Positions 787 to 59,985 of a stretch of 64,000 nucleotides of DNA are shown here, piece after piece (the first letter of the stretch is position 1; every line of letters starts with the position of its first letter). The translations under genes and the position numbers were made by a program. This DNA is from Heptranchias perlo. Lineage: Eukaryota. The notes below the pieces were generated by a model. That model did no database searches. It saw only the letters and a program-made list of their open reading frames with translations, and had not been told where the DNA came from. The stretch is taken from assembly GCF_035084215.1 (NCBI RefSeq), contig NC_090360.1:10850001-10914000 (forward strand), written 5' to 3'.

Positions 787-990
787 ATGTGGAGATGCCG
801 GTGATGGACTGGGGTTGACAATTGTAAACAATTTTACAACACCAAATTATAGTCCAACAAATTTATTTTAAATTTCACAAGCTTTCGGAGGCTTCCTCCT
901 TCCTCAGGTGAATGGTGTGGAAATGAAATTTTCGAATCCTTCGCATTTGTAAATCACAGAACAATGCCTGGTGATTACTGCCCGTTGCAA
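787..990 (-). mobile_element. Penelope-like pLTR copy 1 (with tail and hammerhead)
   Basis: Reverse complement of the repeat at 20965-21095, plus about 80 bp of extra 5' element sequence. Confidence 0.85.
874..912 (-). ncRNA. Minimal type I hammerhead ribozyme motif
   Basis: Minus strand reads TTCAC-CTGAGGA-A-GGAGG-AAG-CCTCC-GAAA-GCT-T-GTGAA: stem I TTCAC/GTGAA, CUGANGA and GAAA cores, stem II, palindromic AGCT stem III. Confidence 0.8.
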
Positions 991-1559
991 TGGAACATGC
1001 AAAGGCCATAGAGGGGAAAGCCTTGAGACTAATCCCTAATGTCAGAGGATATGAAATATGAGGGGAGACTGGAGAAGTTTAGGCTATTCATCCTTTGAAA
1101 GGAAATGACTTGGAGGGGATATTATACAACTCTGTATAATATATTAAACAGTGCACATACGGTATCCTATCAAAGAGTTCAAATTGGTGAAAGGCAAACT
1201 TAAGGCCAATGTCAGGAAGTTTTTCTTCATGTAAAAAGTGATTAACAATTGGAATGGGCTTCCAGGGAGCGTAGTGGAGGCAAAATCCTTGGAGTAATTT
1301 AAGAGATTGCTGATGTTGTGATGGGTGAATGGCCGCCTTCACCCTTACCTAGCTTATGACGTGGCAGAGGAATGTTGCCTCTGTGCCACAAGCAGAAATA
1401 TACTTGTTGAATCCCTTGAGGACTTGAAATATGTTGATGCTTCAAATCAGTGGACTGATAAGATTCTAGTGTCGTCCCCGTGATACCATCCTAGGCAATT
1501 TTGCAGTTTTAATTGTAGCACATCTGTGTCGACCCTTCTAATTTTCAATTGCATTGTTA

Positions 1560-2010
1560 AACAGACACTTGCCCAACTCCTTTTAAAAAGAATTAATCGA
1601 CACAACATGAGTTGCTTTTGCTGGGAATCCAACATACCCATTGCTTTCCGTCACTAAAACAAACATTGCTTTTAAACTCTGGTTTTGCTTGAGGCTTGCT
1701 GATTTTGTGCTCCTGTCATCCGCTTCTATACTCACAATCTTATTTAAATGCTTTATCCTTGCCTCTCATTGTTTTGAAGATTTGTATCAAGTTGTCTCTC
1801 ATTCTTTTCTCCAATGAACATAGTTTCAGTTTTATGCCCCAAGCCCTGAAATCATCACTCTCCTTTGATATCTGTCCAGTGGTCAATGTCTTTTCCCAGC
1901 TAGGATGCCCACAACTGCACACAGTGTTTGAAATGTAACCTGACCAGTGATTTGTGCAAGGTTGAAATCATCAATTTTGATTTATAATCACATGCTCTTA
2001 ACGTTTATTC
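1560..2010 (-). mobile_element. Old CR1 LINE 3' fragment
   Basis: ORF 1740-1922 LCSLEKRMRDNLIQIFKTMRG matches CR1 LFSLEKRRLRGDLIEVFKIMKG. Confidence 0.7.
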
Positions 2011-4103
2011 CCAGCAATGGATTTTATTATTGATAACTGCTTTGCATTGACCAGATACTTCGAGCGAGTAATTACATGCATCTCATTTTCCTTTTTTTGG
2101 GAATATCTTTGCAATGTAGCCATCTTTTTAAGAGCCACTTGTCTTTCAGGTATTAGTAAATTCTTCACTAATTTTCCACCAGATGGGAAATTGGAAATTA
2201 AATAATAAACACAGGACTCACTAAATTTCTGCCAACCTGAATCGACTATCCCTTGTTTATCTTGATGGCAATATCTGCCAATTATTAGTAGCCAGATTCA
2301 AACGAAACAGGTGTCACCTTCCAGAACATGGAGAATTACACCTGCTGAGGATAAGTTTGGAAACTAACACAGAATCTCTGATGTATTGTTGCCATTTTGT
2401 AACATGCATTTGACCTGAGATTTCCACAGCAATTGTTCTCACCGAGAAGGACAATGAGGTGTTATGATTTCAAATTGGAAGTGTGGCAAGTAAGAAGAGA
2501 TATGTGTCCATTTAGCAGGAATTATCAGCCAACATTGAATTACCTTGTTGTGTTCGAAGCACAGTGTTGGAGGAGATTCAGAACGAGCAGGAAGGTTTGT
2601 AGTCAATTTTGAGACTCTGTCCAATGTTTGAGACTGCCACCATAATGGTTAATAGCCATATGACTTAGCACGAGCAAGAATCAATACGTTGCAGTATGTA
2701 AGCAATAGTTTACAAAGCACAATTGAGAATTATATTATCTCATCGTCCTTTGGGTAGAAGCTGCGACCTCGTTCCCCGTCCCTTCATGCACGTACTCTCA
2801 TTCTCGTTTACCTGCCTGGTACTTTCTTTTTTTTCTGTCCTCTACACTTGACAAAGGCTCAGACTCCCCAGTTATACCCCCACAAAAACAGAACTGCGGC
2901 AAAATACGTCCAGATAGTTTCCAAAATGCTCCCTTTCATTTACCCAATCGTGTAGACAACACGTATTTGTCCAGAAGAGACGGTGCCTTGTGGCCCTCTT
3001 GTCTCGCCTTATCCCTAGCACAGTGTTGCTCAGTCCCTGCTGTTGATAAATCACCCTATAGGCCTTGAAGGTGACAGGACATGGCTAGCTTCAGCATTCC
3101 ACTATGTCTGAAGCATTGTGGGGGTAACGTTATATTCCTCCCTTAGTTTAGAATAGCAAGATTCTCATGGCTGTTAGTGCCTGCAGCTGCACTAAGTTAA
3201 TTTAAAAGCAGTCTATAGTACAGTACTTTCAGCTAAAGTGTTGACTAATTAACCCTTTCGAGCCTGGTTCCCCTAAATACCTTGACCTATATTTCCTTAC
3301 AGGTTATCATGGAGATCTGGGAGTTGAATGCTTCATGCCTCTATCAATTCAACCACTCTCATTGTGAAAGCAAAAGCCACAGCTGCCTTGAGTTTTCTTG
3401 CCGCAGGGTCCATCCAAGTTCCTGGTGGAGATTTAAACTGGCATTGCTCAGGAAGCAATGTCCAATTGTATTCAGGATGTGATTGACGCTTTTATGGTAT
3501 GTTCTTCATGCTTCATTCATTTCTCCAAAAAAGTAGAACAACTCTAAAACCAGTAAGAGCTGCTGCAGGGTCTGCAAAAAGTGCAGGGTGTTTTCAATGG
3601 TACACTTGTTGAGATATGGACCCATCCTGGGGACTACAACAACCACAGAGGATTCCACTGCTTAATCACAAAGGTAGTCTCTGATAAAGCATGAAAATAT
3701 CATGGTGACTACTGAAAAATTCCCTAGGTCAACACATGATCCCATAATTTAATACAGTTGGTGCGTACTGACTATGCTCGTCAGGGATAACTGTGTCTGC
3801 GCTGGAAGCTATTGGCCGAAACCTTGGCTAACAACAGCAGTGCAAAGCCGTTGGAATGCAGCAAACTGTATGTACAGTCAAACTCATAAGGCTGTCAGAT
3901 CAGTTGTAGACTTTACGTTTGTTTGTGATGTGGACACGTGTTTGTGAAGAAGTAGCCAGGCCGGTGAGTATAATTTGAGTTGTGGATGTTGCTGGTATTG
4001 GTGAAGGTGGTGCTGATTTCTCATTGGTGACAGTTACCTACTAGTGATAAGTAACATGACAAAAATAGTTATTTAAGTTTTCACACGCAAATGAATTTCA
4101 GTT

Positions 4104-4853
4104 CAACAAGAGAGAGTCTAACCACCTCCCCTTGACATTCAACGGCATTACTATCGCCGAATCCCCCACCATCAACATCCTGGGGGGTCACCATTGACCA
4201 GAAACTTAACTGGACCAGCCATATAAATACTGTGGCTACGAGAGCAGGTCAGAGGCTGGGTATTCTGCGGCGAGTGACTCACCTCCTGACTCCCCAAAGC
4301 CTTTCCACCATCTACAAGGCACAAGTCAGGAGTGTGATGGAATACTCTCCACTTGCTTGGATGAGTGCAGCTCCAACAACACTCAAGAAGCTTGACACCA
4401 TCCAAGATAAAGCAACCCACTTGATTGGCACCCCATCCACCACCCTAAACATTCACTCCCTTCACCACCGGCGCACTGTGGCTGCAGTGTGTACCATCCA
4501 CAGGATGCACTGCAGCAACTTGCCAAGGCTTCCTCGACAGCACCTCCCAAACCCGCGACCTCTACCACCTAGAAGGACAAGAGCAGCAGGCACATGGGAA
4601 CAACACCACCTGCACGTGCCCCTCCAAGTCACACACCATCCCGACTTGGAAATATATCGCCGTTCCTTCATCGTCGCTGGGTCAAAATCCTGGAACTCCC
4701 TTCCTAACAGCACTGTGGGAGAACCGTCACCACACGGACTGCAGCGGTTCAAGAAGGCGGCTCACTACCACCTTCTCAAGGGCAATTAGGGATGGGCAAT
4801 AAATGCCGGCCTCGCCAGCGACGCCCACATCCCGTGAATGAATTTTTAAAAAA
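4104..4853 (+). mobile_element. Young CR1-group LINE family B, 5'-truncated
   Basis: ORF 4232-4789 (RT C-terminus ...YKAQVRSVMEYSPLAW...). Near-identical to 50625-51368; shared 3' end GGGCAATAAATGCCGGCCTCGCCAGCGACGCCCACATCCC. Confidence 0.92.
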
Positions 4854-5405
4854 CAGTCTGATCCGGCTGATCTCCACTCTTTGCATTCTGTTTCTACAAT
4901 TACCATGAATTGATCTCTCCCATGGATGGAAGCAGGCATATGCATTGTGTGCAAATCTGGACCTTTTTATTGCAAATCAGCTGTTGGAGCTCCACAGCAC
5001 CTGAATAAGAGATCACTGCCGTTCTGCTTCTTGATAGCGCTGGCCATGGCTGCAGTACATACCCGATTCTGCTGTTTCATTCCAGGAGTGGACTCTGTAC
5101 TGTAGGCTGCCCGTGGGAATTACCACTCGTGTGATAGATCAGGAATTCCCAGCCGCAGCACAGAGCCCGTTCCCAGAGCGAAGTAGCTGCGTCAGATGGG
5201 AGCTGCAGCTGGGACCAACGGCGAGAAAATCAGTAAGGAGTTGTAGGAATCTGTGAATTGGGTGGAGAGAAAGGTAGTTCAGAGCATGAAATAATGCACC
5301 ATGTTTTTGGGGAGGCTGGTGCCACAAGAAACACCAGTTACCAAAACCATTCCTGCGCTAGATGTGGAGGTCACTGATTTAGCATTTAAAATACCCGTGT
5401 CCATC

Positions 5406-5690
5406 TGAGGCCCTATCTCCCTGTTTAGGTGGACATAAAAGATCCATGGTGCAATTTGAATAAGAGCTAGGAAGTTTTCTCAATGCCCTGGTCAATATTT
5501 ATTCCTCAATCAATACCACCATAAACAGATTAACTGGTTATTTATCTCATTTTGTTTGTGAAGCCTTGCTGGACACAATTGGCTGCCCATTTACCTGCAC
5601 AGCAACAGAGACTATATTTCATAATAATTCATTGTCTGTGACTTCCTGAGGACATGAAAGGCACTGTATAAATGCAAGTACTTTTTTTCC
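5406..5690 (+). mobile_element. DeuSINE (SacSINE1-like) 3' part
   Basis: GGTGGACATAAAAGATCC...GAAAGGCACTGTATAAATGCAAG; homologous to 33803-34240. Confidence 0.75.
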
Positions 5691-6794
5691 CTTAGCTAGT
5701 TCCTGAACAAGTGCCTATTCCTACAGCCCAAAAGTCTCTCGTCAGTCATTTCTGACTTAGCAAAAGGAGCAATCAAGACAAAAGGATCCTACATTTGTCC
5801 CACTCTCTTACTGTTATACATCTTTCCTGGCCAAGTGGCAACCTGCTCCCAGTTTATGACAATGCTGCTTTTGAGCTAGCATCTAGGAAATGCATGAAAA
5901 TGGGCTACATGGCAACTGCCTGCTCCCCTGCATTTGTTCCTCCTCCCTCCCCTTGTAAAAGTGCCTACTCCTGCTCAGTACAGTAATCATTTGTGAGAAA
6001 TTAATTCTTCTCCAACTTGCAAGCAATGAAAGCTCAATTATGTCACAAACATGGTGGGGGGGGCAGTTGCAGCTTTAAATTATTACAGGAAAACTTAATT
6101 TCCTGCAGAAGTTGAGCTTTGCCAAGAGCTGAGAAAGAGTTATCGTCCAATCGTACTGACGAGTTTAGAATGATTGTAGACTAGTGCGACTGGTGAGAGC
6201 TTGTATTTTTGCCACGAGTTACGTTATCTTCTTTATGAAATGCAGAGTAACAGATGGTTGGGTGTGAATTACAGTCGTGTTTGTGATCCTCGCTCGGTCT
6301 GGGTCAACCCACAAGTACTTAAATAAAATTAGACTGAATCAGCGACCCCATACCTGTCTGAAGATGCAAATCTAACAAAGTGGGGTGAGTGCGCAGGCTG
6401 AGGAGGTAATGAAAAACAACAGGCCTGTGGCTCGTAAGTGCTGCAGTTGCAGCTCCAACATCAGACATGTAAAATTATAGGAGAATTACGTGCATGTTTG
6501 AACATAGTGCTGCTGTGTGATTTACCGAAGTATCATTGTAGGACGAGACAAAGAAATGTACCTGGCATAATGTAAGACATAGTGCATACTCTGTAGTGAG
6601 CGTGTCACTACATCCCTCTCCTGTACAAATACTTTATTCAGTTTAAGCTGCCATGTAGGCCTTAAAAATAAGGTTCTTACCTTCTGTTCATGTAAGTAAT
6701 ATAAGCAGCTGTCTTTTGAGCAAAGTCGAATTTCTTCTACTCTTCAGCACCTTTGTAATTTATTCATGAACTAAAACCTGAATCCCATTAAGGA

Positions 6795-14775: not shown

Positions 14776-17700
14776 GGGAGAAAATTGGGAGGAAATATTT
14801 AGGATGCATATCTTCAAATTTCAACATGTTTGGTTGCTGATAATACCAGGTGTCATTAAGACCAGAAAATATGTCATTCCTTGCCCAAGAGCTGTTCCCA
14901 ATATTGGATATCTTCTGGAGATCAGAGAAAGGGTATAGCTGCAGGATCAGAGTGCGCTGAGGATTATATCGCCCATGAACAATGTGTAAACTATAAAACT
15001 GTAAAGTTCTGTTCAAAGTTAGTGTATCTTACACTGTTCCCTATCTTTCGCCTGAATGATCTGAAGCCAACAGAGCTCATGTCAGAAATTTTCAGCATCT
15101 CTCATCAAGGAGTCTTTCACCTTCCCCTGCCCAATGTGATGGAAGCAGAGCTTTGTCATGTAGGGAAATGCTCTTTTTTATATGAATTCAGTTAGTCAAA
15201 GAAGTGAGTTAAAGATCGGCTTCAGATGAGCTGTATCTTAGAAGAGTAGCCAAAGCACCAAACCCTGATTCAGTTGCACTTCATTAAGAATCATCTGTAT
15301 TGGATAATTTTCCCCATTGACATTGTTGCCTGTATTTAAAAATAAATTGTGTCAGAAAGATAATTTTATGACTGGATCAATAAATTTTAAGGTGTTAATA
15401 TATGCAACTTTGCAGATTGGTGGATTGGACGGATTCATCATTTCTAATTTCACCCAACAGCGGTCACCTTGAAAGGAAGACAGTTCATGTGTCATATTTA
15501 ACACCTGCATCATAAAGAAAATCTTCTTTTGACATTAAGGCATTGCCATTGCTTCTCAAATTTAGTTGAGTGTTTAAGTCTAGCTTCCCACGCTGCTTCA
15601 GTTCCTGTAATTGATGCCTTGACTCCATACAGTAGCAGGAATATAGCTTCACCCACAGACAAATATTATGTCAGGAAACCTATGAAAAAATGGTTTCTGT
15701 AAAGGTCACGCAGATCAGCAGACTGTACAAGAATTTTGTTCTGAAGAAAATATTTAAACTCTTGTGGACTGATTCAATCCTTTTTGTTTTCTAAGAATTT
15801 GTACCATCAGTGTCTTGCTATGTTTTTCTGCATCTGTGTAATTATTTTGCTTATAAATATGTTTGACTATTAGGTTAACCTGAATGTAACTGATATTTAC
15901 CATCTTTTGGAGTGGGCAATAGAGCATGGTCGACATCACGTATGATGTCTGGTGGGTTATACCATGAGAAACATTCTACTTGTTGGTTCTGTGACAGCTA
16001 TCTCATTCATAGTATGCACAATGGGCCAAGTTTCAGTTGATAGGAAGCTCTGTACTGCTTTGACCCCAATGTAGTGCCCATTCTCTTCCAGCATTCGCAC
16101 CTGTTTTGTGAACATGAGAGAGAAAGAGGTGACTGTGTGTACAGTGCCAGATCTGTTTTTATGCTGAGGGCAGAAGAATGAATTTTTTCAGCTAATTTTT
16201 AGATGAAATAGTAAACATTGTGAATTTATGCTAACTCCTTGGTTTCGAATTTACTTTAGTTGCAGGAAGATTTATTCCAACACCAACAGTCAAAAGCAAT
16301 ACTTGGTTCTTAGCATTGTGTGAAGGTCAAAACAACTTTGGCTGCTAAAACTGGGCATAATTGTCAACCTAAGATTACTCAAGCAGCAACATTAGGTTTA
16401 TCTCAGGAATTATCTCTTCCAAACACCATTTGATGAAGGGAAAATAATTCCTACTGGGCGGAAAGCAAAACATAGTCAACTTTAAAAGCCAATATAATGG
16501 AAGGCCTAGGAAAACAAACTGAACATTTTGACTGAAAATCTCAATCTTGATCAAGATCAGTCTTGATCAAGATAATGTCTGTACAAGCACCAGTGTATTA
16601 CTCTAATGAATCTCAGACATTGGTGCATCAACCCTACATTTCATGACTAGTATTTGGTGTATATTGTAGTTGCATTTCCAATTCCCAATCTGATAGCGAT
16701 GCCTCAGAATACAAATATCCTTTGGTGCTCAGATTTATGAAAGAGGTCTGAAAGACCCAATCCCTGTCAGAACTCTATTCTTTAAACCAAATTAAACAGC
16801 CTTCAGCATTCTATAGTAATGTCCCCTGAACTGGAAGACAAGTATTTGAAGGTTTTGGTCTCAGCTTGAAGAATTAGTGCTTTGGGTACTGACTATCATT
16901 ACATGATGTTGCATTCGGGTAGAGTAATATTTTGGCTTCATGCTAAGTTCCTGTCAAAAGAGCTTTTGGTTTGATTTAGCTCAAGAGATCATTCTTGAAC
17001 ATTCTATCAGTTTGTCACATCCACATAAATCTTTGTGGGTAAGCACAGGCTGTCTCCCACTATTTAGACAGTGAATGGTTCAGAAACTCTAGCCAATCTT
17101 TGTGAAAGGGAAACTGAACATCAGGTGAACTTGCTATAAAACAAAGAGTAGCAAAAAGGGAAGTGGAATATATCTCTTTTGGGGGGTGGGAAGTCAAAGG
17201 TTATTGAGCAGAGGCTGCAGTGGGTGGAGAAAATTCCTTTCATCGGCTTGCGATTAATATCAATATGTTCTTTCATTTTCAGCTTTTCTTTCTCTAATAG
17301 CTAGTCCTTTGTGATCTTCCTCTGTACTAGTATGAATTTTGTTCCAGGGAAAGAGGGGGAGGGAGGGTAAGAGGAGGAAAGAACAATAGGGAATGTCTGT
17401 GATTGGGTAGAGGGAAAAAGTGATTAAATGACGAAAGGGATGATGGTGCGAGGCAAGGAGGGTGGTAATGGGTCAAGTTAAGAAACAAAAGATTGGCCAG
17501 CAGTAGCTGTGAATGGCAACAGCAGAACCATTACCAGCACAAGCTGACTGAAAAAATGGTTATGATCTGAAGTTATTGAAATCAATGTTGAGTCCAGAAG
17601 GTTGTAAAGTGCCTAAATGAAAGATGAGGTGCTGTTCTTTGAGCTTTATTGGAACAGTGTAAGACGCCGAAGACACAGAGGTCAGAGCAGGAGTGGGACA

Positions 17701-17853
17701 GGGAAATAAAGTGGCAAGCGACCGGCAGGTCAGGGTCACGCTTGCGGACAGAGCGGAGGTGTTCAGCAAAGCGGTCGCCCAATCTGTGTTTGGTCTCCCC
17801 AGTGTAGAGGAGACCATGTTGTGGGTAGGGAATACAGTAAACTAAATTGAAAG

Positions 17854-17977
17854 ATTGTAAACAATTTTACAACACCAAGTTATAGTCCAACAAATTTATT
17901 TTAAATTCCACAAGCTTTCGGAGGCTTCCTCCTTCGTCAGGTGAACGGTGTGGTTCACCTGACGAAGGAGGAAGCTT
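17854..17977 (-). mobile_element. Penelope-like pLTR copy 2 (tailless, fold-back), nested in the PLE fossil
   Basis: Starts ATTGTAAACAATTTTACAACACC; contains a 23-bp inverted repeat 17924-17946/17953-17975. Confidence 0.88.
17905..17946 (-). ncRNA. Minimal hammerhead ribozyme motif
   Basis: GTTCAC-CTGACGA-AGGAGGAAGCCTCC-GAAA-GCTT-GTGGAAT on the minus strand. Confidence 0.78.
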
Positions 17978-18904
17978 ATTGGTTGACAGCCTATCCCCAG
18001 AAATGGAGATAGAGAAGTCGAAGAAGGGACGGGAAGAGTCAGAGGTGGACCATGTGAAGGTGAGGGAAGGGTGGAAATTTTCCAGTTCGGGGCGAGAGTA
18101 GGAAACGACACCGATAGAGGCATCAATGTACAGGAAAAAGAGGTGAGGGAGGGGACCTGAGTAAGACTGGAAGAAAAAATGTTCCACGTATCCCGCAAGA
18201 AGGCAGGCATGGCTGACACCCATACGGGTTCCCATAGCGACACCTTTTATTTGGAGGAAGTGAGAGGAGTCAAAGGAGAAGTTGTTCAACGAACAAGTTC
18301 AGCCAGGCGGAGGAGGGTGGTGATGGATGGGAACTGGTTGGGCCGTTCAAGAAAGAAGCAGATGGCCTGCTGGCCGTCCTGGTGAGGGATGGAGGTGTAG
18401 AGCGACTGGACGTCCATGATGAAAAGGAGACGGTTAGGGCCGGGGAAGTGGAAACTGTTAAAGTGGCGGAGGGCGTTCGAAAAGTCGCGGATGTCGGTCG
18501 GAAGAGACTGGACAAGGGGAGAAAAAAGAGTCGAGATAGGAGGAAATAGGTTCCGTGGGGCAAGAACAGTCTGAAATAGGGCAGTCCTGTTTTTGGATCT
18601 TGGGAAGGAGGTAGAAGTGGGCTGTGTGGGGTTGGGGGACTATGAGGCTGGAGGCTGTGGGGGCAAGATCTCCAGAGGTGATCTTTAGAGGCCACTTAGA
18701 ATGTTGTTTAGATTGGGCCTTGGATGAATACCCTTGTAGCCATCATAAATGGTTTACTTTTGCATACTGCATCATTGAGACAATAGGAAGTCATTAAACA
18801 CATCTCTGAGAAGTTCATATCCTGATGCTAGAAAGGATTTTCATTCAAAATGTCTAGTGGGGGACTTATTTGGACAGACAATACAGCTACTGTGAATTGC
18901 CACC

Positions 18905-19993: not shown

Positions 19994-20964
19994 GTACGTT
20001 GAAAAGCATTCTAGCGGAAAGCCAACAAACAAGATTATTTTACGTAGAATACATAAATTAACAGAATACAGTCTTCCAGTGAGGTGCATTTATATCCCTC
20101 ACTCTTCATAGCACAAAACAACAAAATAAACAACTCTGCTTCTATTAGAGGCTACACTCACTTGCAAGTGGAAATCCCTGCACTGCAATGAACCTGTTCA
20201 TTTTAAAAGATTAATTAGTATTAGCGCAATGCATTTATGTGTGTCTTCATCACCTCTGATTGCATTTTGTAACATTTATTGCTCCATTCCTCTCGTAGCT
20301 TTTTGAATTAAATACTTGTTTCCTGTTGTATCAACTCACATGGTACTATCGTTATTCTTCTCTTGATTACGCAAAGTCAATTAGATGAGCTCAATTTACT
20401 TAAAGTGTCTTATATGTGTCTGACAGCACACAAAAGTAGCAGCTAGTGGTAAGATTGATAGATGCAGTCAGATGACTATGGGCGAGAATTCTCAATGAAT
20501 TTGCCCATTTTAAGCAAGTTCCTCACTCAAAAACATCAATATCTTTTTAGCTTGGAGCTGGAATCAGGTGGTCTGAAATAAGGAATTGCTTTTCAACTGG
20601 TTGACATTGCAAAATTTTAGCTTCTCCCTCGAGGTCATGTTGCTGGATTATTTTATTTCTTTGTTGCCCTCAAGATTGACAGACTGACTAAAAGCATGCT
20701 TTTATTTGCATGTCAATTTTGATTCTTGGGTTTTAAGCATTTGCATTGAATGAACATGAGCTTTAAGCCCAAGGGCAACTCATTGCATTGTACCAATTAA
20801 GGCTGGTCATTCTGTCTGCCAGTAGAAACAACTGTCGAAGTATGCAGCATGTGGCTGTTCTTCGGTAGATAGATGACCCATGTAGTGAGCCAAGGAATGT
20901 CTGATAGAGGCATGTTGATTGTACCACACATTATTCTGGTTCAATCCTTGACTATCAAATCTGG

Positions 20965-21095
20965 ACATTTACCTGAGGAAGGAGGAAGTCTCCGAAAGCT
21001 TGTGAATTTAAAATAAAATTGCTGGACTATAACTTGGTGTTGTAAAATTGTTTACAATTGTCAACCCCAGTCCATCACCGGCATCTCCACATCAT
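20965..21095 (+). mobile_element. Penelope-like pLTR copy 3 (hammerhead + tail) with TSD
   Basis: Flanked by ATCAAATCTGG at 20954-20964 and 21094-21104 (the AT overlaps the element end). Confidence 0.9.
20967..21007 (+). ncRNA. Minimal type I hammerhead ribozyme motif; predicted cleavage after 21001
   Basis: ATTTAC / CTGAGGA (20973-20979) / GGAGG-AAG-TCTCC / GAAA (20994-20997) / GCT-T / GTGAAT. Confidence 0.8.
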
Positions 21096-21184
21096 CAAAT
21101 CTGGGTAGACCCTGTGCTGTTGTGATACATGCTCCATGGCTTGAAGAAAGTAAAACAAATTATGCACGTATATACTCATCCTGC

Positions 21185-21457: not shown

Positions 21458-21608
21458 CTAACAGCACAGTGGGAGAACCGTCACCACACGGACTGCAGCG
21501 GTTCAAGAAGGCGGCTCACCACCATCTTCTCAAGGGCAATTAGGGATGGGCAATAAATGCTGGCCTCGCCAGCGATGCCCACATCCCATGAATGAATTTT
21601 TAAAAAAA
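21458..21608 (+). mobile_element. LINE family B, short 3' end
   Basis: Matches 4704-4853. Confidence 0.9.
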
Positions 21609-36528: not shown

Positions 36529-37055
36529 CACAAGTCAGGAGTGTGATGGAATACTCTCCACTTGCCTGGATGAGTGCAGCTCCAACAGCACTCAAGAAGC
36601 ACGACACCATCCAGGACAAAGCAACCCGTTTGGCACCCCATCCACCACCCTAAACATTCACTCCCTCCACCACCGGCGCACCGTGGCTGCAGTGCATTAT
36701 CCACAGGATGCACTGCAGCAACTCGCCAAGGCTTCTTCGACAGCACCTCCCAAACCGCGACCTCTACCACCTAGAAGGACAAGGGTAGCATGCACATGGG
36801 AACAACACCACCTGCACGTTCCCCTCCAAGTCACACACCATCCCGACTTGAAAATATATCGCCATTCCTTCATCGGCGTTGGGTTAAAATCCTGGAACTC
36901 CCCACCTCACAGCACTGTGGGAGAACCTTCACCACATGGACTGCAGTGGTTCAAGGCGGCGGCTCACCACCACCTTCTCAAGGGCAATTAGGGATGGGCA
37001 ATAAATGCTGGCCTCGCCAGTGACGCTCGCATCCCATGAACGAGTTAAAAAAAAA
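36529..37055 (+). mobile_element. LINE family B, 5'-truncated
   Basis: QVRSVMEYSPLAWMSAAP...; same 3' end followed by poly(A). Confidence 0.92.
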
Positions 37056-41530: not shown

Positions 41531-42169
41531 TTTTTTTTATTCGTTCGCGGGATGTGGGTGTCGCTGGCGAGGCCAGCATTTATTGCCCATCCCTAATTGC
41601 CCTTGAGAAAGTGGCGGTGAGCCGCCTTCTTGAACCACTGCAGTCCGTGTGGTGAAGGTTCTCCCACAGTGCTGTTAGGGAGGGAGTTCCAGGATTTTGA
41701 CCCAGCGACGATGAAAGAACGGCGATATATTTCCAAGTCGGGATGGTGTGTGACTTGGAGGGGAACGTGCAGGTGGTGTTGTTCCGATGTGCCTGCTGCC
41801 CTTGTCCTTCTAGATGGTAGAGGTCGCGGGTTTGGGAGGTGCTGTCGAAGAAGCCTTGGCGAGTTGCTGCAGTGCATCCTGTGGATGGTACACACTGCAG
41901 CCACAGTGCGCCGGTGGTGAAGGGAGTGAATGTTTAGAGTGGTGGATGTGGTGCCAATTAAGCGGGCTGCTTTGTCTTGGATGGTGTCGAGCTTCTTGAG
42001 TGTTGTTGGAGCTGCACTCATCCAGGCAAATGGAGAGTATTCCATCACACTCCTGACTTGTGCCTTGTAGATGTTGGAAAGGCTTTGGGGAGTCAGGAGG
42101 TGAGTCACTCACTGCAGAATACCCAGCCTCTGACCTGCTCTTGTAGCCACAGTATTTATGTGGCTGGTC
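41531..42169 (-). mobile_element. LINE family B, 5'-truncated
   Basis: ORF 41593-42108 is nearly identical to ORF 4232-4789. Confidence 0.93.
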
Positions 42170-45345: not shown

Positions 45346-45822
45346 AGTTAATGCAACCTACTATTCCAACCTTTGCTACTATTTTTTTTACTTTTAATAA
45401 ACTTGCTTCATAGATTATAGCCTAAGTCACATGGTATAAAAGGGTGATTATTATTCCATTATCCAAAGAGAAAGATTTTGCATCAATTCCAGTGAGAAAA
45501 TTACAGAAATAAGGGTGTCCTGTCCAACTCTGCAACAGTACAATACCAGATATTGTGCCTATAAGATCACACTGCAGTTCGTAGGGATCGATGGGTTCAC
45601 TTACAGGAGAACTCGAGCGTAGAGCATGAAAACGATATCTCTTGCAGGCTGAAAATCAGAAGAGAGAGAGAAAATTACTAAGAAAACTTAATTTCTGCTA
45701 AACAATTACACATTGCTTTATTAAATTCAGAAGCAAAACACATGAAGAATTAATGGAATGGAAGTAAGAGCTGGCTCGATCTGTACTTTTGTCCGTTGAT
45801 GTTCAGTGTCTTGCTGCTTGTA

Positions 45823-45915
45823 ATGATGTGGAGATGCCGGTGAAAGAGGCTACCTCTTTTTGAATTTAAAATAAAATTGCTGGACTATAACTTGGTGTTG
45901 TAAAATTGTTTACAA
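45823..45915. mobile_element. Penelope-like pLTR copy 4, inverted structure with TSD
   Basis: Tail piece (minus) 45823-45843, hairpin filler, body (plus) 45861-45915; TTGCTGCTTGTA at 45811-45822 and 45916-45927. Confidence 0.88.
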
Positions 45916-46869
45916 TTGCTGCTTGTAGGGAGTGTTTGGACAGTATCAGCTTGGATCAAATTTTTATATAAGCCACTGGCTGATCAGCCATCACTTTCTC
46001 ATTAGGAAATGGTTCAGTGGAATATTTCTTGTATCACTTCCCATCATTTGCATTGAAGGTTACAAGTGAGGTGTTTGAATTTCTGAAACTCTGTATGAGA
46101 AGCACTTGACCTTTCTGCACAACCTACTATATCTCTACATTTGCTTGGCTAACTCTGTTTAAACCTCCCATGGGAAGCTTATTGCAATTGCATTATAGCC
46201 ATTTGTCACTAAACACGTTTTAATTGGCCAATCTGTGAATTTTCATCTAAATTGTAGTGTCAGATACAACAGTCAACATGTTTGCACTGCTGATCAGCCC
46301 GTTGTCCTCTCTTGTGTAAGAAGACATGATACAGTGTCTTACATTGCAGCCAATACAGCAGCTGTGCACCTGTCAAGCTTTCTTCCCTTTTGGGTGCTGC
46401 TTTACAAGTCATTTTTAGAGAGGTAAGGATGAGATGATACCATTTTGGCTTGGGAAAGAAAGATTATTGTTAGGCAAACCGCAGTTTACTTTGTAGCATG
46501 TTGATTTTGCTTTATTGATCTATTTATCTGTTCAAAGGCAACCTTTGGAGCAGTAGCTTGATCTTTTGTTTGTATTGTGTGTACCTGCATAGAAAATTTT
46601 TCAATCAATCCTTTCCATTACTGTTCAGCCTGTCCATGACCAAGGATTGAGTAATATTATAGGATGTTGATTTGCTAATATTTATGCAAATTTTTATTTT
46701 GGGATGGTAGGAAACATTAGGAAATAGGGGAGAGAGACAGAAAGGAAAAGAACTGTGCTCGCAGAAGGAATAAACCAAAAGACACTGCAGAGACTTTCAA
46801 TTACTTATTTTATTAACCTAAATTAGCTCCCTGGTAATCTTTAAACAGTCATAAGTATTCCAGTGCAGG

Positions 46870-49072: not shown

Positions 49073-51879
49073 GCCCAGATTTTGCTGGAATGGGGCATCT
49101 CATGGTGTGCCCCGTTAGTTCGACTTTTTCCTTCACCTTTCAGCTCAAATTTTTTGCCCTGCAAGTTGCTGGAAGTGCGAGCTGATAACGGCATGGCGAG
49201 GGCAATGGGGTGTCGGGGACGTTGGTGAACGATGGGACTAACAGTCTATCTCCTTAATCAATGAGATTTAAGGATTGAGAAAGAAACAGAGGAATGGCCA
49301 AGAAGGAATGGCCCGGCATATTCCTCACTCTACCATTACCAACAAGCCAGGGGATCAACCCTGGTTCAATGAGGAGTGTAGAAGAGCATGCCAGGAGCAG
49401 CACCAGGCGTACCTAAAAATGAGGTGCCAACCTGGTGAAGCTACAACACAGGACTACATGCATGCTGAAAACGGAAGCAACATGCTATAGCCAGAGCTAA
49501 GCAATTCCACAACCAACGGATCAGATCAAAGCTCTGCAGTCCTGCCACATCCAGTCGTGAATGGTGGTGGACAATTAAACAACTAACGGGAGGAGGAGGC
49601 TCTGCAAACATCCCCATCCTCAATGACGGCGGAGTCCAGCACGTGAGTGCAAAAGACAAGGCTGAAGCGTTTGCAACCATCTTCAGCCAGAAGTGCCAAG
49701 TGGATGATCCATGTCGGCCTCCTCCCGATATCCCCACCATCACGGAAGCCAGTCTTCAGCCAATTCGATTCACTCCACGTGCTATCAAGAAACGGCTGAG
49801 TGCACTGGATACAGCAAAGGCTATGGGCCCCGACAACATCCCGGCTGTAGTGCTGAAGACTTGTGCTCCAGAACTAACCGCACCTCTAGCCAAGCTGTTC
49901 CAGTACAGCTACAACACTGGCATCTTCCCGACAATGTGGAAAATTGCCCAGGTGTGTCCTGTCCACAAAAAGCAGGACAAATCCAAACCGGTCAATTACT
50001 GCCCTATCAGTCTACTCTCAATCATCAGCAAAGTGATGGAAGGTGTCGTTGACAATGCTATCAAGCGGCACTTACTCACCAATAATCTGCTCACCGATGC
50101 TCAGTTTGGGTTCCGCCAGGACCACTCGGCTCCAGACCTCATTACAGCCTTGGTCCAAACATGGAGAAAAGAGCTGAATTCCAGAGGTGAGGTGAGAGTG
50201 ACTGCTCTTGACATCAAGGCAGCATTTGACCGAGTGTGGCACCAAGGAGCCCTAGTAACATTGAAGTCAATGGGAATCGGGGAAAACTCTCCAGTGGCTG
50301 GAGTCATACCAAGCACAAAGGAAGATGGTAGTGGTTGTTGGAGGCCAATCATCTCAGCCCCAGGACATTGCTGCAGGAGTTCCTCAAGGCAATGTCCTAG
50401 GCCCAACCATCTTCAGCTGCTTCATCAATGACCTTCCCTCCATCATAAGGTCAGAAATGGGGATGTTCGCTGATGATTGCACAGTGTTCAGTTCCATTCG
50501 CAACCCCTCAGATAATGAAGCAGTCCGAGCCTGCATGCAGCAAGACCTGGACAACATCAAGGCTTGGGCTCAAAAGTGGCAAGTAACATTCGTGTCAGAC
50601 AAGTGCCAGGCAATGACCATCTGCAACAAGAGAGAGTCTAACCTCCCCTTGACATTCAACGGCATTACCATCACCGAATCCCCCACCATCAACATCCTGG
50701 GGGTCACCATTGACCAGAAACTTAACTGGACCAGCCATATAAATACTGTGGCTACAAGAGCAGGTCAGAGGCTGGGTATTCTGCAGCGAGTGACTCACCT
50801 CCTGACTCCCCAAAGCCGTTCCACCATCTACAAGGCACAAGTCAGGAGTGTGATGGAATACTCTCCACTTGCCTGGATGCGTGCAGCTCCAACAACACTC
50901 AAGAAGCTTGACACCATCCAGGACAAAGCAGCCCGCTTGATTGGCACCCCATCCACCACCCTAAACAGTCACTCCCTTCACCACTGGTGCACAGTGGCTG
51001 CAGTGTGTACCGTCCACAGGATGCACTGCAGCAACTCGCCAAAGCTTCTTCGACAGCACCTCCCAAACCCGCGACCTCTACCACCTGGAAGGACAAGAGC
51101 AGCAGGTACATGGGAACAACACCACCTGCACGTCCCCCTCCAAGTCACACACCATCCCGACTAGGAAATATATCGCCGTTCCTTCATCGTCGCAGGGTCA
51201 AAATCCTGGAACTCCCTTCCTAACAGCACTGTGGGAGAACCTTCACCGCATGGACTGCAGCGGTTCAAGGCAGCGGCTCACCACCACCTTCTCGAGGGCA
51301 ATTAGGGATGGGCAATAAATACCGGCCTCGCCAGCGACGCCCACATCCCATGAACGAATAAAAAAAAATAGGGTGGATTAGGATCAAATCAGGTACAGAA
51401 AGAGAAATAAATAAATAGAGGGAAAGAGCAATTAGTTTAAGAGAGAGAGAAAAAAAAGGCAGTGAGAAACAAATTTTAAAATTTTATATTTTAAAAAATC
51501 TCTTAACAACTATTTACTACCTGGAGGAATGAGGCTCCACAGTTTAAATTATTCCCTTTCTGGGCCAGTTGGCATTGCAGGAACATTAAACTCCTCACTA
51601 AGAAGGTACTTACGCTGTTAAGTAGCAGCCCTAACTTTCTGCTGCGAGTTTAATTGGCAATTAATGTGCAAATGCAGCAATTTCTTGAAACTCTCGGGAA
51701 GGTTGAGGGCGAGCTGCCGTTTTCACAACGCTAACGGCGGAGCGGCACAAATCGTCCAGCAACGTGACGATTGCAATTCACGGGGTAGCTCTTTCTTGCC
51801 ACAATTTGCTCGATTATTTCCACATTAATATTGGCGAGCGCCATTAAACCCGCCATTATTTTGGCACCAAATCTGGGCC
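49073..51879. mobile_element. Non-autonomous DNA transposon (TIRs GCCCAGATTT / AAATCTGGGC) split by LINE family B
   Basis: Complementary termini near 49073 and 51879; the right arm is homologous to 52290-52739. Confidence 0.55.
49308..51368 (+). mobile_element. LINE family B, longest copy (RT domain, one frameshift near 50280, stop at 51162)
   Basis: KAMGPDNIP, NYCPISLLS, QFGFR, LDIKAAFDRVWH, GVPQGNVLGP, FADD; poly(A) end. Confidence 0.95.
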
Positions 51880-52215: not shown

Positions 52216-52281
52216 TTATTGGGCAGGATCGTCCTATGAGCGGCGAAGGATTGGCGCTCATGGGAAAATCCCGCCCAATAA
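52216..52281. mobile_element. Collapsed hairpin MITE (27-bp imperfect arms)
   Basis: TTATTGGGCAGGATCGTCCTATGAGCG / CGCTCATGGGAAAATCCCGCCCAATAA. Confidence 0.65.
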
Positions 52282-52289
52282 CATAGCGA

Positions 52290-53832: not shown

Positions 53833-55456
53833 TTCATCCTTCTCTTTCCATAGATGGAATCTGGGACAGGATAATTCTCCAGGTGATTATGCTGGGGCAC
53901 AAAAAATGTCCCCCCATCATCCTTCCTGTTCTTTGAACTACTTGTTAAGAATAAATGGGAAAATTTGAGAGAAATCAACTACAAATTGTCCTGGCTTGCC
54001 TTGCAGAATTCAGTACTGGATTAGTCTATACCACAAGTAGGCATTGCTGTGCTCCCCAGTAATATAATTCAGAAAGGTCAATCCTCCCCATTACCTGCTG
54101 TACTTTGTAACAACACAGGAAGTGACTTCCTGCGTGTTAGATGTTTGATGACTGGTGCAGCAATGGACTGCGTCTGTTCCGTGCATGGAACCAGCTCTAA
54201 TTAATTATGTAAATTATACCACATTCCATTCTAACACTATACATGACTGTCAAATCCTTTGTTTAATTTTGTTTATCATTTCTCATGCCAAGGAAGTAAA
54301 GCACCGCGTTGATTTAGGACTCTGAATTATTGATTGACTCACAAAATGTTGCATGGATTCTGTCACCGTGGGAGTCATACTGTCTGTCATTGATTCACTT
54401 CTGTTCTCTAAAGGTAGAGGTAGTGAACTCTTTATGTTAGAAGCACAATAGACATCAAATGACTTTGTGTAACATGATGTGTAGGTGTTGCCGCATGGCT
54501 CTCTTATAAAGTGCTGAACGCTCCAGGTTATCTATACTTTCTCAAGTTACCCCCCAACTCAAGCTCTTGTTGACTTACATAGCAATGATTTTCCCTTTTG
54601 GCTGCACTGACCTGATGTGATCAGTATAAACTGAGCACTTGTTCTTGCACATCATTGTGCCCTGATACCAGGGGGGGATTCAGATAGCTTCAGATTTTCT
54701 TTGCTTTTGTGTAGGAGGTAGATGATTTGGATTGAGGGTGTTTGTTTCCTGCAAAATGAGAAAACCATGTCCATGACCTTCTCCAGAAAAGTACGGAGTC
54801 AACAACAAATTCTTAAGGGAGATATTGGAGTGGAGAGGGAGCAGCATTTTACTTTCCTTTTACCTGTTCTCCCTCTCTGGATGGAGGGATGTGGGCTGCT
54901 TAGATTTATCTCTGATGCCAGATGTTTTTCCGACTGATTGAAGTACCATTCAGTTACTGTTGGGGCCCATTTTGAAGTATCAGCCTGAAGTAAGGTCTTG
55001 CCTGTGGCGGGCCCCTTGATTTCAAACATCCCACAAATTCTTCAGTCGCACTTTTTTGAGAACAATTCTCTCCCTAAAGCTGAATGCATGATAGTTGTGT
55101 CCTATGTGCATGTGGAGTCGGAAATGGGGTAACTTTTTTAAAAGAAGAATTTTGAATATAAGAAAATATATGGAGCCTTTAATTGCCAGGACAATGAGAT
55201 TTATTTATTATCAGAAGGCCTTTCATGTCTTGACTATAACAATAGTATTTGTGAGTGTCGATCAGTTTTCTAGCATTTCATACATTACATGATTAAATAC
55301 GCTTTAGTACAGATTCCAAGTAAGGCCCTGATTAACTTTTTATATGTAATACTACATCTATAAAAGTTTAGCTTTTGGTTTACCAGTGTAGTGAAACATG
55401 TATATTTAGACTGCTTTGTGTGTGTATATAGAATATACACAAAAATCCCTTGATTT

Positions 55457-55838
55457 AGGGCTGATCTAATTTAGGTATTTAAAATGATTAAAGGATTTGA
55501 TAGGGTAGATAGAGAGATACTATTTCCTTTGGTGGGGGAGCCCAGAAGAAGGGGGTTTTCACCTTAAAATTAGAGCTAGGCTGTTCAGGGATGATGTCAG
55601 AAAACACTTCTTCACACAAAGGGTAGTGGAAATCTGGAACTCTCTTCCCCCAAAAAGCTGCTGAGGCTAAGGGTCAATTGAAAATGTCAAAACTGAGATT
55701 GACAGATTTATGTTCGGCAAGTGAATCATGGGTTACGGAACCAAGGCGGGTAGATGGAGTTAAGATACTGATCGGCCATGATCTAATTGAATGTTGGAAC
55801 AGGCATGAGGGGCTGAATGACCTACTCCTGTTCCTATC
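55457..55838 (+). mobile_element. CR1 LINE 3' fragment
   Basis: DLI..FKMIKGFDRVD..., FFTQRVVEIWNSLP; CR1 tail present. Confidence 0.88.
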
Positions 55839-58424
55839 TAGAAGATGGATAAGACTGTAAACTTGCCATGTTGATTGCACTCTTTTAAAATGGAAATGAT
55901 TTATGCATTGCTGGGCAGTAACAATGTCTACTGATCACACATGGCTTCACCAAAGTGTGACTTTGCTGTTGAAAGCTTTAAAATGTTTAATGGTATTGGA
56001 GATTGTTGCAGGTTGAAACATGTTCTTTGTCTCCCACTGGGAAAACTGGGAATTGAATTAGTTCCGGGCGTTTACGTGTTGCAGTAGTAAAATAAATATA
56101 CAATTTTTTCATTAAATGCTTATGAACGTCATGCCCCTCCTTGCCCCCAAATGTCACTCGAGGTCCTGTCACATCATCAGCATTACCTCCAGGTTACAAA
56201 ATAGAGGTTCAGGTAACCTGTGATCTTTCAGAGCACACGCATGGCACAAGTGAGCAGCAACATTTCCCACATTGTAGGAGGAATAAAAGAGCCTTCAAAC
56301 AGAAGGGTTCTACAGGAAAAAGTGAAGATTTTATATGAAAAGGAGAGCAACGCTGGGGTGAGAACAGATGGATTGTAGAGGAGTGAAGCTTGCATGAACT
56401 AAACAACTGTCTGACAGGCAAGGATTGATTGGATTTTTCAAAACGAACAAAAATTGCAATTTTTTCATCTTCAAGATTAGTTTTTAAAGATTTTCTTTAA
56501 CTTTAGTTGCATCCTTTCTACTAAAGAAATGCATATCCGGAGATTTCAACCTACCTTATTGAGTATGGCACCCCTTTATGGGTATAAGAAGTAATATTCA
56601 CATGATTTGAATGCTATATTCTGTATTAACACAGCTTGTCTGCAGCATTGGATTCCCTGTGCAATTCTAACTACCCAGTCAAATGGAGGGAGCGAGAATT
56701 ATTTTCTGGGATCAGATATTTTTATTCGAAGGGGAGGTTCTCCATTGCCATGGTCAGCTGGTACAGGCGAGGACCCCTGCAGTCTTTCCACAATCTGAAG
56801 ACTGGCTTCCTTGTTAAAAACTCCTAACGTTTGTTGGTGATACATCATTTCTACAAGCCCTGCAGATGGCCGAGCAGTTCATTTCTTGGATGCTTCAGTT
56901 TGGAATTATTCATTTGTTGTGAAGTGTGGCAGGGTTATTGATTTGTACTGCACGGTGCTATCCACTCTCTTGCTCAAAAGGGTGACTGTACGCTGCCTGT
57001 TGTTTAGCCCCTTGGAGCGATAACTTATTAAATTACCTCTACGACTGATCTGCTGTTGTGAGCTGTCTGGCACAGAGTTGCACTGGTCGTTTTATTTCCC
57101 TAAATCAATAAAGAGTTTAAGATTAAAGATTTTCAGCACCATATATGTCATTTTTCATTTGAAGACATTGAAATTGCACAAGCTTATGCAATTTCAGATT
57201 TTGTATTCGAGAAGCAACTAAAAATGATTAATGGGCATTTTTCTTAAATTGATAATTGTTTTATGTTTAATCATGGGTTACATTATGTGGCCATCTAACC
57301 CTCCAGAGGTCATCTTTAAGGCCTTTTCCAGACTTCGTTTCCAAATGCCTAATAAACAGAGTGGCCGTTCATTTCTTTAGCAGCTGCTCTTTCCCCAGCT
57401 GCACCAGTCAAAAAATGTCGTGTGGGTAATCTACTCCCAAAACGTTGCCAATATCCCGAAATGCTTCTGAGAATAGCCGGGGTATAACTCACTCTGTGCT
57501 TCCCCATAATTCCACATAGTGCCTGAGATCAAGAACACAGCAGCATGACATCATTCTACGTTCATGGTCTGGGACTGAGATGCTATAATAATAACAACAG
57601 GGTGTGATTGCCTTGTAATTAAACCAGTGAACGATAAAAAGACCTCTATTGCTTCTTTTATAAGCCATTTATGCTTCTTTTGTTTCTTTTACTAAGCCAT
57701 TTATGCACGTATTTAAGGGAAGGAATAGAATCTGAAAAGTGAACCACTGTCCTGAGTTGATGGATTCCTGCTGTATTATTCCATCAGTTTACATCGAGAC
57801 CACATATTGGTGTTAAAGGAAGTGGGGATACTCACGTTGAATCATTCTGTTTGATTCTTTGTAACAGCTACAACACGAGGCTTGGTAGTGTTGGTACAAT
57901 ACAGAAATTAGCCCTATCTTTTAAGCTTGTTTATGTTTTGTAATTTAGTTTGTAGGGTAAGTCAACCGGCACCAGTAGGTTGGCATGTTGTGATATCTCA
58001 TTAGCTCCCACTGGTGGGCTGGGTGGGTTAATTCAGGAGCCCCTTTTGCTCATGAGCCTGTCTGCATGATCCATTTAAAAAAAAATCTGCACTAATAATG
58101 AAATTCATAATGTGAATCGATTAAAATTATTTTTACACACAATGTCACTGAAAACACTCAATACTTGAATATAATCCTTATCTAGTTCATATAAATTATT
58201 CTTGCATGTCCCATGTGTGAACACATGCTGTGATTACCCAATTATCACAGTGATGACATTTCATAAGTGTGATTTAAGGCCCCAGTAGTGACTATCTGAA
58301 GAGCATAATCCAATTCTGCTTAAATGTCATACTTACTTCACCATCAACAGGTGCACAAGCAATACTAACTAAAGTAAAAATCACCCTTTCTCCAATCTTT
58401 TTATTCCTTCTTTATAACTTGCAG

Positions 58425-58539
58425 ACTATTTCAGCATCAGTACATCAATAAATTCAATCAAGTCCCACTTGGAAACTTGTTAAGCTTGCAGTATACCTCC
58501 AGAGTCGGGCCCCGTCTTGATTCCGGAGAGCAGCGATGG
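58425..58539 (+). other. Candidate 115-nt internal exon of an unknown host gene
   Basis: TACTAAC at 58363-58369, long pyrimidine tract, TGCAG acceptor, TGG|GTGAGT donor; one open frame. Confidence 0.4.
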
Positions 58540-59859
58540 GTGAGTCCTTGGTGGAAGTGGTGTCTCACCATTTGGGTTCAGTGCTGAATGCAGTATAATT
58601 CCAGTGCGGTGTCAAACCAGCATCAAAAAGTACTCAGAGGGTCATTGGCATCTCCTGGGAACTTACTGAACCTACCGAGAGTTGAGTTTGGTCATCTTTC
58701 CTCATCCTCCCATGAAGGCTAGGCACCTGTTCCTTTTCTCCTCTATGAGTCACCTTGGGGCTTTTTCTATGTTAAAAGCATTATATAATTGCAAGCTGCT
58801 GCTGACTAATGCTTCGAGAGCCTGAATGTTTAAATGTTACCGCTGGGAGGAGGATTTCTGCACATACCTGTAATTACCATCAGAAAATCAAAAGTAAACT
58901 TCTGTAAGCATTGCACAGCCTCAGATTGAAATGAGTATTAAAATGTCTTATTAAATATTGAGACAAATGAATATGCCAGTGGAGGAGGCAGAACAGCTTT
59001 TTTTTTAGCATTTTTGATGCTCGGATCTGATCTGATTTGAATATTTCTCTGCTAGCTCTGGTATTACCAGAATGGACTCTATCAGAGCTGGTTGAACATA
59101 TCCGTGTATATGCATGGTGATTTTTCAAGGCTCTGCTTCTGTTGTGGAGCCTTTCTAGACAGGAGTGTAGGTCGCCTATCGAGCTTTATAGCCCCGTCTC
59201 TGACCTGCACTTCTGTCTAGTAAGGTTCTAAGTTAGGGGCAAAGACTCACAAAATAATCCCGATAATGAATTGAAATAATTAATTAAATCAGAATGATGC
59301 AGAATTAAAGTGATTCTCCAGGATTGATGGTGAGGACTTCGATTGGTTCATGTAAGGTTAGAAATTTTATTTAATAACTTTTGAGACCCCCCCCGATTTT
59401 TACATTTCCAATTTAAATCTATTCGGGAGGTCAAACATTGATTTGATAACTGTTTTGCCAAATATCTCTGAAAATAGTGAAGGAGTGGAATGGAAAGTAC
59501 AAATTTTAAAACGCTTAAAGATGGAGGGGAATGAAGTGGAAGATGAATTCGAGAAATGACCAAGAAAATGGGGGAAATTAGTAAAAGTCAACGTATGGAC
59601 CAGAGGGCTCCAGAATGCCCCAATGGAAAGATGAAATAATGTACCTGCAGTTTGCATTGAGCTTGGTTGGAACAGTTAAGAGGCAAAGGATGGAAGGGTC
59701 AGAGTGGGAATGGAAGGGGAATTAAAGTGGTGAGCCACAGGAAGATGAGGATCGTACTTGTGGACAGATTGGAGCCATTCAGCAAAGCAGTCCTTCCAAC
59801 TGAGTGTGATCCGCCCAATGCATGGGATGACCACACTGTGACCAATGAGCATATTATAG

Positions 59860-59985
59860 TGTAAACAATTTTACAACACCAAGTTATAGTCCAGCAATTT
59901 TATTTTAAATTCACAAGCTTTCGGAGATTTCCTCCTTCCTCAGGCAAATGTCAACCCCAGTCCATCACCGGCATCTCCACATCAT
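59860..59985. mobile_element. Penelope-like pLTR copy 5, inverted structure with TSD
   Basis: Body and hammerhead on minus (59860-59950), tail on plus (59949-59985); CATATTATAGTG at 59850-59861 and 59983-59994. Confidence 0.9.
59909..59949 (-). ncRNA. Minimal hammerhead ribozyme motif
   Basis: ATTTGC-CTGAGGA-AGGAGGAAATCTCC-GAAA-GCTT-GTGAAT on the minus strand. Confidence 0.78.

Follow-up and report, generated by a model that had tools for sequence, protein, structure and literature searches.

Penelope-like elements and their remains

Insertions of Penelope-like elements (PLEs) are described with target-site duplications (TSDs) of 8-10 bp, a tail, inverted pseudo-long terminal repeats (pLTRs), palindromic junctions, TSD-less joins at microhomologies, solo pLTRs and insertion into other PLEs (PMC3846280), and the tail can lie at either end (PMC8557442). 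The minimal hammerhead ribozymes (min-HHRs) tied to truncated PLEs are mostly solo; fish, coelacanth and frog genomes carry solo min-HHRs by the thousand, and single min-HHRs did not cleave (PMC4209133). With the PLE protein of an anole, two internal start sites of reverse transcription bound the tail, both DNA strands are cut and extended, and hammerhead cleavage is dispensable and protein-assisted (PMC11167929). The DNA considered here, 64,000 nucleotides of the shark Heptranchias perlo (contig NC_090360.1, positions 10,850,001 to 10,914,000 of the forward strand; "the window", numbered from its first letter), contains five short repeats, copies 1 to 5, with the anatomy of such a ribozyme-bearing PLE end.

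The five repeats are read as severely 5'-truncated stumps of the ribozyme-bearing end of an abundant PLE, produced by internal priming at two sites; the probability of this reading is put at roughly three in four. The five are built in more than one way: the simple form is seen in copies 1 and 3, a fold-back in copy 2 and an inverted tail in copies 4 and 5. The structural features all figure already in descriptions of endonuclease-containing (EN+) PLEs, and the family is most likely a known kind of debris.

The repeated module

Comparison of the five repeat regions by self-BLAST against the window yields five copies and no sixth. As an earlier note on this DNA had claimed, all five are nearly identical (0-4 substitutions and a 1-nt indel over the common 55-56 nt body) and fall into two variants, copies 1-2 (type A) and copies 3-5 (type B); its description of the family as young holds only relatively, at 0-4 substitutions in 55 nt among the copies. 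The inserts are 93-205 bp long and contain no open reading frame (ORF) sequence. With the first base after the predicted hammerhead cut numbered +1 (21002 in copy 3), the module runs from the 5' strand of stem I (~-35) through CUGANGA (C3 at -29), an unpaired A, a 5-bp stem II, GAAA and GCUU to the cut, and then through the 3' strand of stem I, AATAAA (+11) and TATAA (+27) to a proximal end site (+53 to +59) and a distal end site (+94). The 3' ends of the copies lie at these two sites: at +53 to +59 in copies 2, 4 and 5, and at +91 to +94 in copies 1, 3, 4 and 5. The ~37 nt between the sites constitute the tail, which is missing from copy 2, collinear in copies 1 and 3, and inverted in copies 4 and 5.

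A pattern search locates the hammerhead motif four times in the window, at 879-907 (minus strand), 17912-17940 (minus), 20973-21001 (plus) and 59915-59943 (minus), against a mean of 0.01 in shuffled sequence; copy 4 has no such motif. All four have the CUGANGA and GAAA boxes, the extra base between positions 9 and 10.1, the G10.1-C11.1 pair, a stem II whose 5 bp all hold, a stem I of 5-6 bp and the palindromic AGCU; the intact core, both stems and AGCT that had been ascribed to four copies are thus all present. Differences among the motifs are at N7, in loop II or compatible with wobble pairing, type B changes preserving the pairs through G-U. A PLE terminal repeat with a minimal type I hammerhead and a palindrome for stem III, as had been proposed, fits the descriptor in PMC4209133, and the placement of the motif bears out the predicted cut after 21001 in copy 3.

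The solo copies have no helix III partner and N17 is U in the motifs; they are therefore predicted to be inactive. The AGCU self-duplex is worth only -2.5 kcal/mol, and the full active dimer is absent from unconstrained cofolds of all four motifs. Stems I and II form in minimum-free-energy folds of copies 1, 3 and 5, not of copy 2, and the fold z-scores (-0.4 to -1.5) are not significant. Covariance models, suggested earlier as a check, did not recover the ribozyme: Rfam hammerhead models match no copy (two matches at E<=1, neither of them to a hammerhead), as is expected because helix III is absent. A match to MIR6426 at 17926-17973 (29.7 bits, gathering threshold 96) is the hairpin of copy 2, and one to snoR71 is put down to chance. 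On the 3' side of the cut, the RNA of 21024-21073 (plus strand) is predicted to form a long stem-loop in which the tail pairs with the TATAA region in a closing helix of 6 bp and the 3' arm contains the proximal start site; the z-score of the whole unit is only -1.2.

The five insertions

Copy 1 (type A; 784-988, minus strand, delimited by BLAST and a loose end at 988) is a simple 5'-truncated pLTR that comprises 75 nt of upstream sequence, hammerhead, body and full tail. Its hammerhead occupies 873-913 (minus; C3 at 907, predicted cut between 879 and 878), its 5' reach is -109, its tail end is ambiguous between 784 and 787, and it has no TSD. It splits a CR1-like ORF2 remnant (704-784 and 988-1330) from which ~58 bp of target are missing; on the right flank the protein match is weak (E 0.06-0.23) and the DNA match strong.

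Copy 2 (type A; body 17854-17953, minus) begins at the proximal site, is tail-less and has an intact hammerhead (C3 at 17940); its 5' end is at -42, 13 nt upstream of C3. Next to it, at 17954-17975 (plus), lies the fold-back arm, a 22-nt inverted duplication that extends from the 5' strand of stem I to stem II.

Copy 3 (type B; 20965-21095, plus) is simple and spans -37 to +94, with C3 at 20973, the predicted cut after 21001, AATAAA at 21012, TATAA at 21028, the proximal site at ~21054-21060 and the tail reaching 21095. Its TSD is 11 bp long (left 20954-20964, right 21094-21104) and overlaps the element end by 2 nt.

Copy 4 consists of a tail arm, the last 21 nt of the tail (45823-45843, minus), a filler (45843-45859) that forms a perfect 7-bp hairpin resembling stem II (z -3.9) and is found nowhere else in the window, and a body arm inverted relative to the tail (45861-45915, plus; +2 to +56), from which the hammerhead is missing. 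The body arm ends at the proximal site with 3 nt of microhomology to the TSD, which is 12 bp long (left 45811-45822, right 45916-45927).

In copy 5 the body arm (59860-59954, minus) has an intact hammerhead (C3 at 59943) and runs from the proximal site (+55) to ~-37, its 5' end lying inside 3-6 nt of junction microhomology (59949-59954). The tail arm (59949-59985, plus) is the whole 37-nt tail (+58 to +94), inverted relative to the body, and the 12-bp TSD (left 59850-59861, right 59983-59994) shares 3 nt with the insertion.

Thus, TSDs of 9-12 bp in three copies, as had been reported, are seen for copies 3, 4 and 5, there being none for copies 1 and 2. An inverted arm is present in three of the five copies (2, 4 and 5), and four of the five read through the predicted cut site. 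Copies 4 and 5 each use the two 3' sites together, one per strand, between TSDs; no stretch of template is copied twice, and the body arm shares 2-3 nt with the end of the TSD.

Abundance and longer relatives

Sixteen public runs, none of them listed as RNA, contain part of the copy 3 region; contigs of four were matched to 740-1040 of the window, that is, to copy 1 as the reference, at a likeness threshold of 80%; copy 1 being type A, type B contigs match it poorly. X1 is a DNA run, X5 comes from the same sample and is an RNA run only by guess, and X11 comes from another organism. Matches number 12,923 of 26.0 million contigs in X1, 1,716 of 1.65 million in X5 and seven in X11; in the 65% of X14 that was read there were none. 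Statements on loose ends draw on 12 of 239 entries, and those on individual contig pieces on 23 of 14,914. No pile-up of ends is tabulated, although contigs do not reveal true ends.

The claim of an abundant family stands: beyond the 12,923 matching contigs, the summed X1 depth rises to 5.8 million and single-locus contigs stay at ~19 (18.6-19.8), from which follows a rough 10^4 to 3x10^5 copies (a ratio of depths, not a true copy number). More than two haplotypes are suggested genome-wide by a variant at 861 in ~46% and one at 857 in ~7% of the summed X1 depth, figures that matching bias may distort. No variant of at least 5% lies in 876-912 as against 13 of 57 flanking positions (Fisher P 0.001), but seed bias is likely. 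This quietness of the ribozyme core was given no weight as a sign of selection: 784-856 and 951-987 are equally quiet, and the variant table lacks the changes at 890 and 910 that type B is known to have.

Multi-copy X1 contigs span stem I into upstream sequence (881-964 at a depth of 136, 908-987 at 184), and contigs that pass stem I in the upstream direction are also found in X5 (881-987) and twice in X11 (874-978). Behind 988, the loose ends agree fully in X1 (12 contigs) and X5 (2) among those listed, and two X11 contigs carry a median of 134 further letters beyond the end of copy 1. The bridging contigs and the agreement behind 988 therefore indicate a longer type A element, copy 1 being a truncated piece of it. 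The proximal site is also where other loci end, at 821 (X1 record 3) and at 820 and 823 (X5 records 17 and 18). The last of these, a contig of 3226 nt at a depth of 465, has at its end a copy that resembles type B but has no tail (823-900), and may represent either a piece of the parent element or a host transcript into which the family inserted. A variant with ~15 extra letters at 978, after which the sequence of copy 1 resumes, is present in both X5 and X11, and the family is therefore common to at least two organisms.

The greater depth of the tail in X5 (3.5, against 0.75 in X1) was not used as a sign of expression, X5 being RNA only by guess and consisting of contigs, and type B contigs being poorly matched by copy 1. 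A start codon at the tail end (the next base is G in two contig items) is only a weak hint. Relatives were absent from viral contigs, and JGI metagenomes gave none and later one, a chance match inside a bacterial-looking gene.

Truncation or a defined small RNA

Several points weigh against reading the copies as simple PLE stumps. No RT/GIY-YIG ORF (reverse transcriptase, RT, with GIY-YIG endonuclease) linked to the module was found, scans of the window's frames and of the metagenome and viral collections being empty or giving chance matches, and the identity as a PLE therefore rests on anatomy. The 5' ends of copies 2, 3 and 5 lie within ~6 nt of one another (-42, -37 and -34 to -40; P 0.013-0.038 under four null models), a clustering at the edge of stem I that plain random truncation does not predict. 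X1 depth is level over 795-904, falls ~4.3-fold over 905-926 and is level again to 981, and the largest 5'-side classes of X1 loose ends among those listed comprise 68 contigs at 911 and 34 at 914, their agreement being low. The upstream sequence of type B is known from ~6 loose letters only. The start of copy 4 lies no more than 1-2 nt from the predicted cut, a coincidence with a chance of 0.09-0.16 that was given no weight, and the twin-priming reading of the inverted tails, set out below, rests on two copies.

With regard to the parent, no frame is open from hammerhead to tail. A 37-codon frame over the upstream part and hammerhead of copy 1 stops just after the cut; its one match, to a repetitive unnamed protein at E 3e-4, is taken as chance. 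The PLE ORF remnants around copies 2 and 5 were also considered and rejected: copy 5 interrupts one of them with a TSD, and they have no DNA match to the module, so that these older PLEs are targets, not the parent.

The clustered 5' ends, together with the depth profile (in X5 the step at 905-926 is 23-fold), are what would be expected of an RNA of ~130 nt, non-autonomous and extending from the upstream edge of stem I to the tail, which is moved in trans by a PLE protein in the manner of a short interspersed nuclear element (SINE), at least for type B. We regard this as unlikely. The fixed 5' end that the earlier note had envisaged for a SINE-like unit does not survive for type A: in copy 1 and in multi-copy contigs from three runs its sequence extends 75 nt past stem I on the upstream side, and it goes on beyond 988. 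The letters beyond the stem I edge of type B, taken from the X1 consensus at 914 (agreement 0.41 among 34 contigs) and from one contig of X11, begin TCAAGA on the plus strand; they match the start of the copy 5 tail arm over 6 nt and the end of the copy 3 TSD at five of six. Thus, the ACATTT at which copies 3 and 5 both start, which had been offered as a hint of a unit, falls on junction microhomologies and would coincide with microhomology to a template that went on. (The consensus of the 911 class starts like type A, with a short gap.) A step in depth is likewise expected if subfamilies differ upstream, and there are seven variant positions at 913-950. There is no tRNA-like head (no Rfam match derived from tRNA, 5S or 7SL) and no poly(A) or simple-repeat end, the element ends abutting the TSD directly; in copy 1, neither a TATA nor a splice acceptor stands immediately 5' of stem I.

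What remains of the earlier expectation of non-uniform 5' ends is that three of five cluster at the stem I edge, where depth also drops; what is weakened is its bearing on a unit, since such a drop could also arise from upstream sequence that is specific to subfamilies. It is plausible that a stop is preferred near the edge of stem I, a place distinct from the ribozyme cut site.

How the tails may have been inverted

Twin priming is a mode of inversion known from work on the L1 retrotransposon. For stumps of a PLE, the corresponding process might be as follows. The RT and GIY-YIG nuclease of the PLE likely nick both target strands 9-12 bp apart, and reverse transcription would be primed internally, on a longer RNA, at the two sites that flank the tail. 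A single primer would leave a simple stump (copies 1 and 3); priming by both nicked strands, one at each site, would give the tail-inverted form (copies 4 and 5); and folding back of nascent cDNA on itself could generate the duplicating inversion of copy 2. Joining at the 5' end would proceed through microhomology or filler, sometimes with loss of target DNA (copies 1 and 2). The hammerhead would be cargo: most cDNAs run through the cut site, and the template was therefore likely uncleaved. The X1 joints 924-820 and 836-818, whose strand is not given, reach the proximal site and would be compatible with tail-inverted copies. That the insertions record two nicks and two starts, each nicked strand priming at one PLE start site on a single RNA and synthesis stopping preferentially at the stem I edge, is put forward tentatively, at clearly less than even odds.

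The same family could have acquired its inverted arms differently, by self-priming on an antisense template or by the copying of two RNA molecules. Head-to-head palindromes of PLEs have been read as the outcome of self-priming, possibly on an antisense template (PMC3846280), and the 22-nt duplication of copy 2 and the hairpin filler of copy 4 look like fold-back products. In copies 4 and 5, however, neither arm duplicates the other. The start of the body arm, at the proximal site, has 2-3 nt of microhomology with the end of the TSD, a feature that priming by a target strand would predict, and on sense RNA both target strands are extended by the anole protein (PMC11167929). Such an origin appears improbable.

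Least probable is descent of the copies, as monomers, from a tandem array of non-LTR retrozymes elsewhere that is copied from cleaved or circular RNA: retrozymes are pLTR-derived, leave dispersed monomers and were found in the one chondrichthyan sampled (bioRxiv 10.64898/2026.07.22.740005), one X1 contig has a head-to-tail joint (978-787) and copy 4 begins at the predicted cut, but there are no tandem units in the window, four of the five copies cross the cut site, no copy has the ends of a monomer permuted at that site, and the single tandem joint might equally be a partial tandem of a PLE.

Older PLEs as targets, and other repeats

The older, different PLE that received copy 2 lies at 17566-18682 (minus) and is decayed (58-64% amino-acid identity to shark and ray proteins, the best named matches, in Chiloscyllium and Hypanus, by themselves pointing to a cartilaginous-fish host). 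Its GIY-YIG region, downstream, is at 17566-17853 (minus; the GIY-YIG match, at E 0.006, is below the cut-off) and its frameshifted RT region, upstream, at 17977-18682 (minus); ~194 codons (~580 bp) between the two are missing at the junction. Pfam gave nothing on the two RT fragments taken by themselves. A relative of the older PLE, P0004, has a cysteine cluster before its GIY-YIG domain, which, as a reading of the motif rather than of a tree, points to the Neptune/Nematis type as characterized in PMC8557442. Copy 5 entered the decayed GIY-YIG region of another such remnant (59584-60044, minus), 71% identical to the copy 2 target over 179 bp.

Copies 2 (17853/17854) and 5 (59861/59862) are thus both in older PLE remnants, in the same polarity, and in homologous coordinates their junctions, immediately ahead of the GIY-YIG motif, are separated by 4-9 nt. 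Older PLEs make up ~2% of the window; the probability of at least two of five copies lying inside them is ~0.004, computed post hoc. An insertion bias toward the GIY-YIG-coding region of older PLEs is possible, on two copies.

Among the other repeats of the window is a family of long interspersed nuclear elements (LINEs) with 3'-anchored copies that are 89-96% identical, at 4136-4853, 21458-21607, 36529-37055, 41531-42169, 49469-51369 and 62458-62764; RT-bearing ORF pieces of the family lie at 49469-51164. Several CR1-like and SINE-like families are present as well; all these family names are provisional.

What the family may tell

As such, the family is ordinary; its value is that of a large natural data set on junction types. 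An explanation for the PLE tail was long missing, until in vitro work recently linked it to two start sites of the RT; in copies 4 and 5 a single insertion shows the use of both. The family is abundant enough for twin priming to be tested against fold-back, and for cDNA ends to be examined for pile-up at the stem I edge or at the cut site, a question relevant to the role of hammerheads in PLEs. Two or three copies each underlie the tail-inverted form without overlap, the possible stop at the edge of stem I and the pair of insertions at nearly the same site of older PLEs. If the two-nick, two-start reading is right, some 10^4-10^5 copies per genome would be its in vivo footprint and would explain tails at either end; the hammerhead fold would then act as a boundary to cDNA rather than as a cutter, and a bias toward the GIY-YIG region of older PLEs may be part of the same picture. 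No paper naming this shark family or the two-site twin-priming reading was found in a search that left Repbase, Dfam and subscription papers outside, and two supplement files of PMC4209133 that were searched have no shark entry.

Comparison with known systems

Of the described systems, animal non-LTR retrozymes (bioRxiv 10.64898/2026.07.22.740005) resemble the shark repeats in being non-coding and pLTR-derived, with a type I hammerhead and dispersed monomers. They are, however, defined by tandem hammerhead units (at least two), of which the window has none, and the copies here bear the marks of target-primed reverse transcription: TSD, tail and inversion.

With the min-HHRs of metazoan PLEs (PMC4209133) the likeness extends to the core boxes, the unpaired base before stem II, G10.1-C11.1, the lack of helix III, the palindrome at 15.2-16.2, the short stem I and the mostly solo occurrence. 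The Schistosoma min-HHR differs in its stem II of 7-8, as against 5 bp here, where in addition N17 is U.

In Poseidon_Ac (PAc) of the green anole, studied in vitro (PMC11167929), two 3' sites, the distal one AC-rich, bound a tail downstream of the hammerhead, as they do here, and the copies here, as with PAc, read through the cut site. In contrast, the PAc ORF starts at stem II and has the start sites inside it; the shark module has no such frame.

It is EN+ PLE units (PMC3846280; PMC8557442) that the insertions match in most of their architecture: a tail (30-40 bp there) confined to one end, TSDs that differ little in length (8-10 bp in those units, 9-12 bp in the shark copies), inverted arms, a palindromic junction (copy 2), TSD-less joins at microhomologies, a TATA-like motif and insertion into retroelements, PLEs included. 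They depart from these units in their size, 93-205 bp without ORF sequence, and in copies 4 and 5, the forward arm of which is the tail by itself and has no overlap with the inverted arm.

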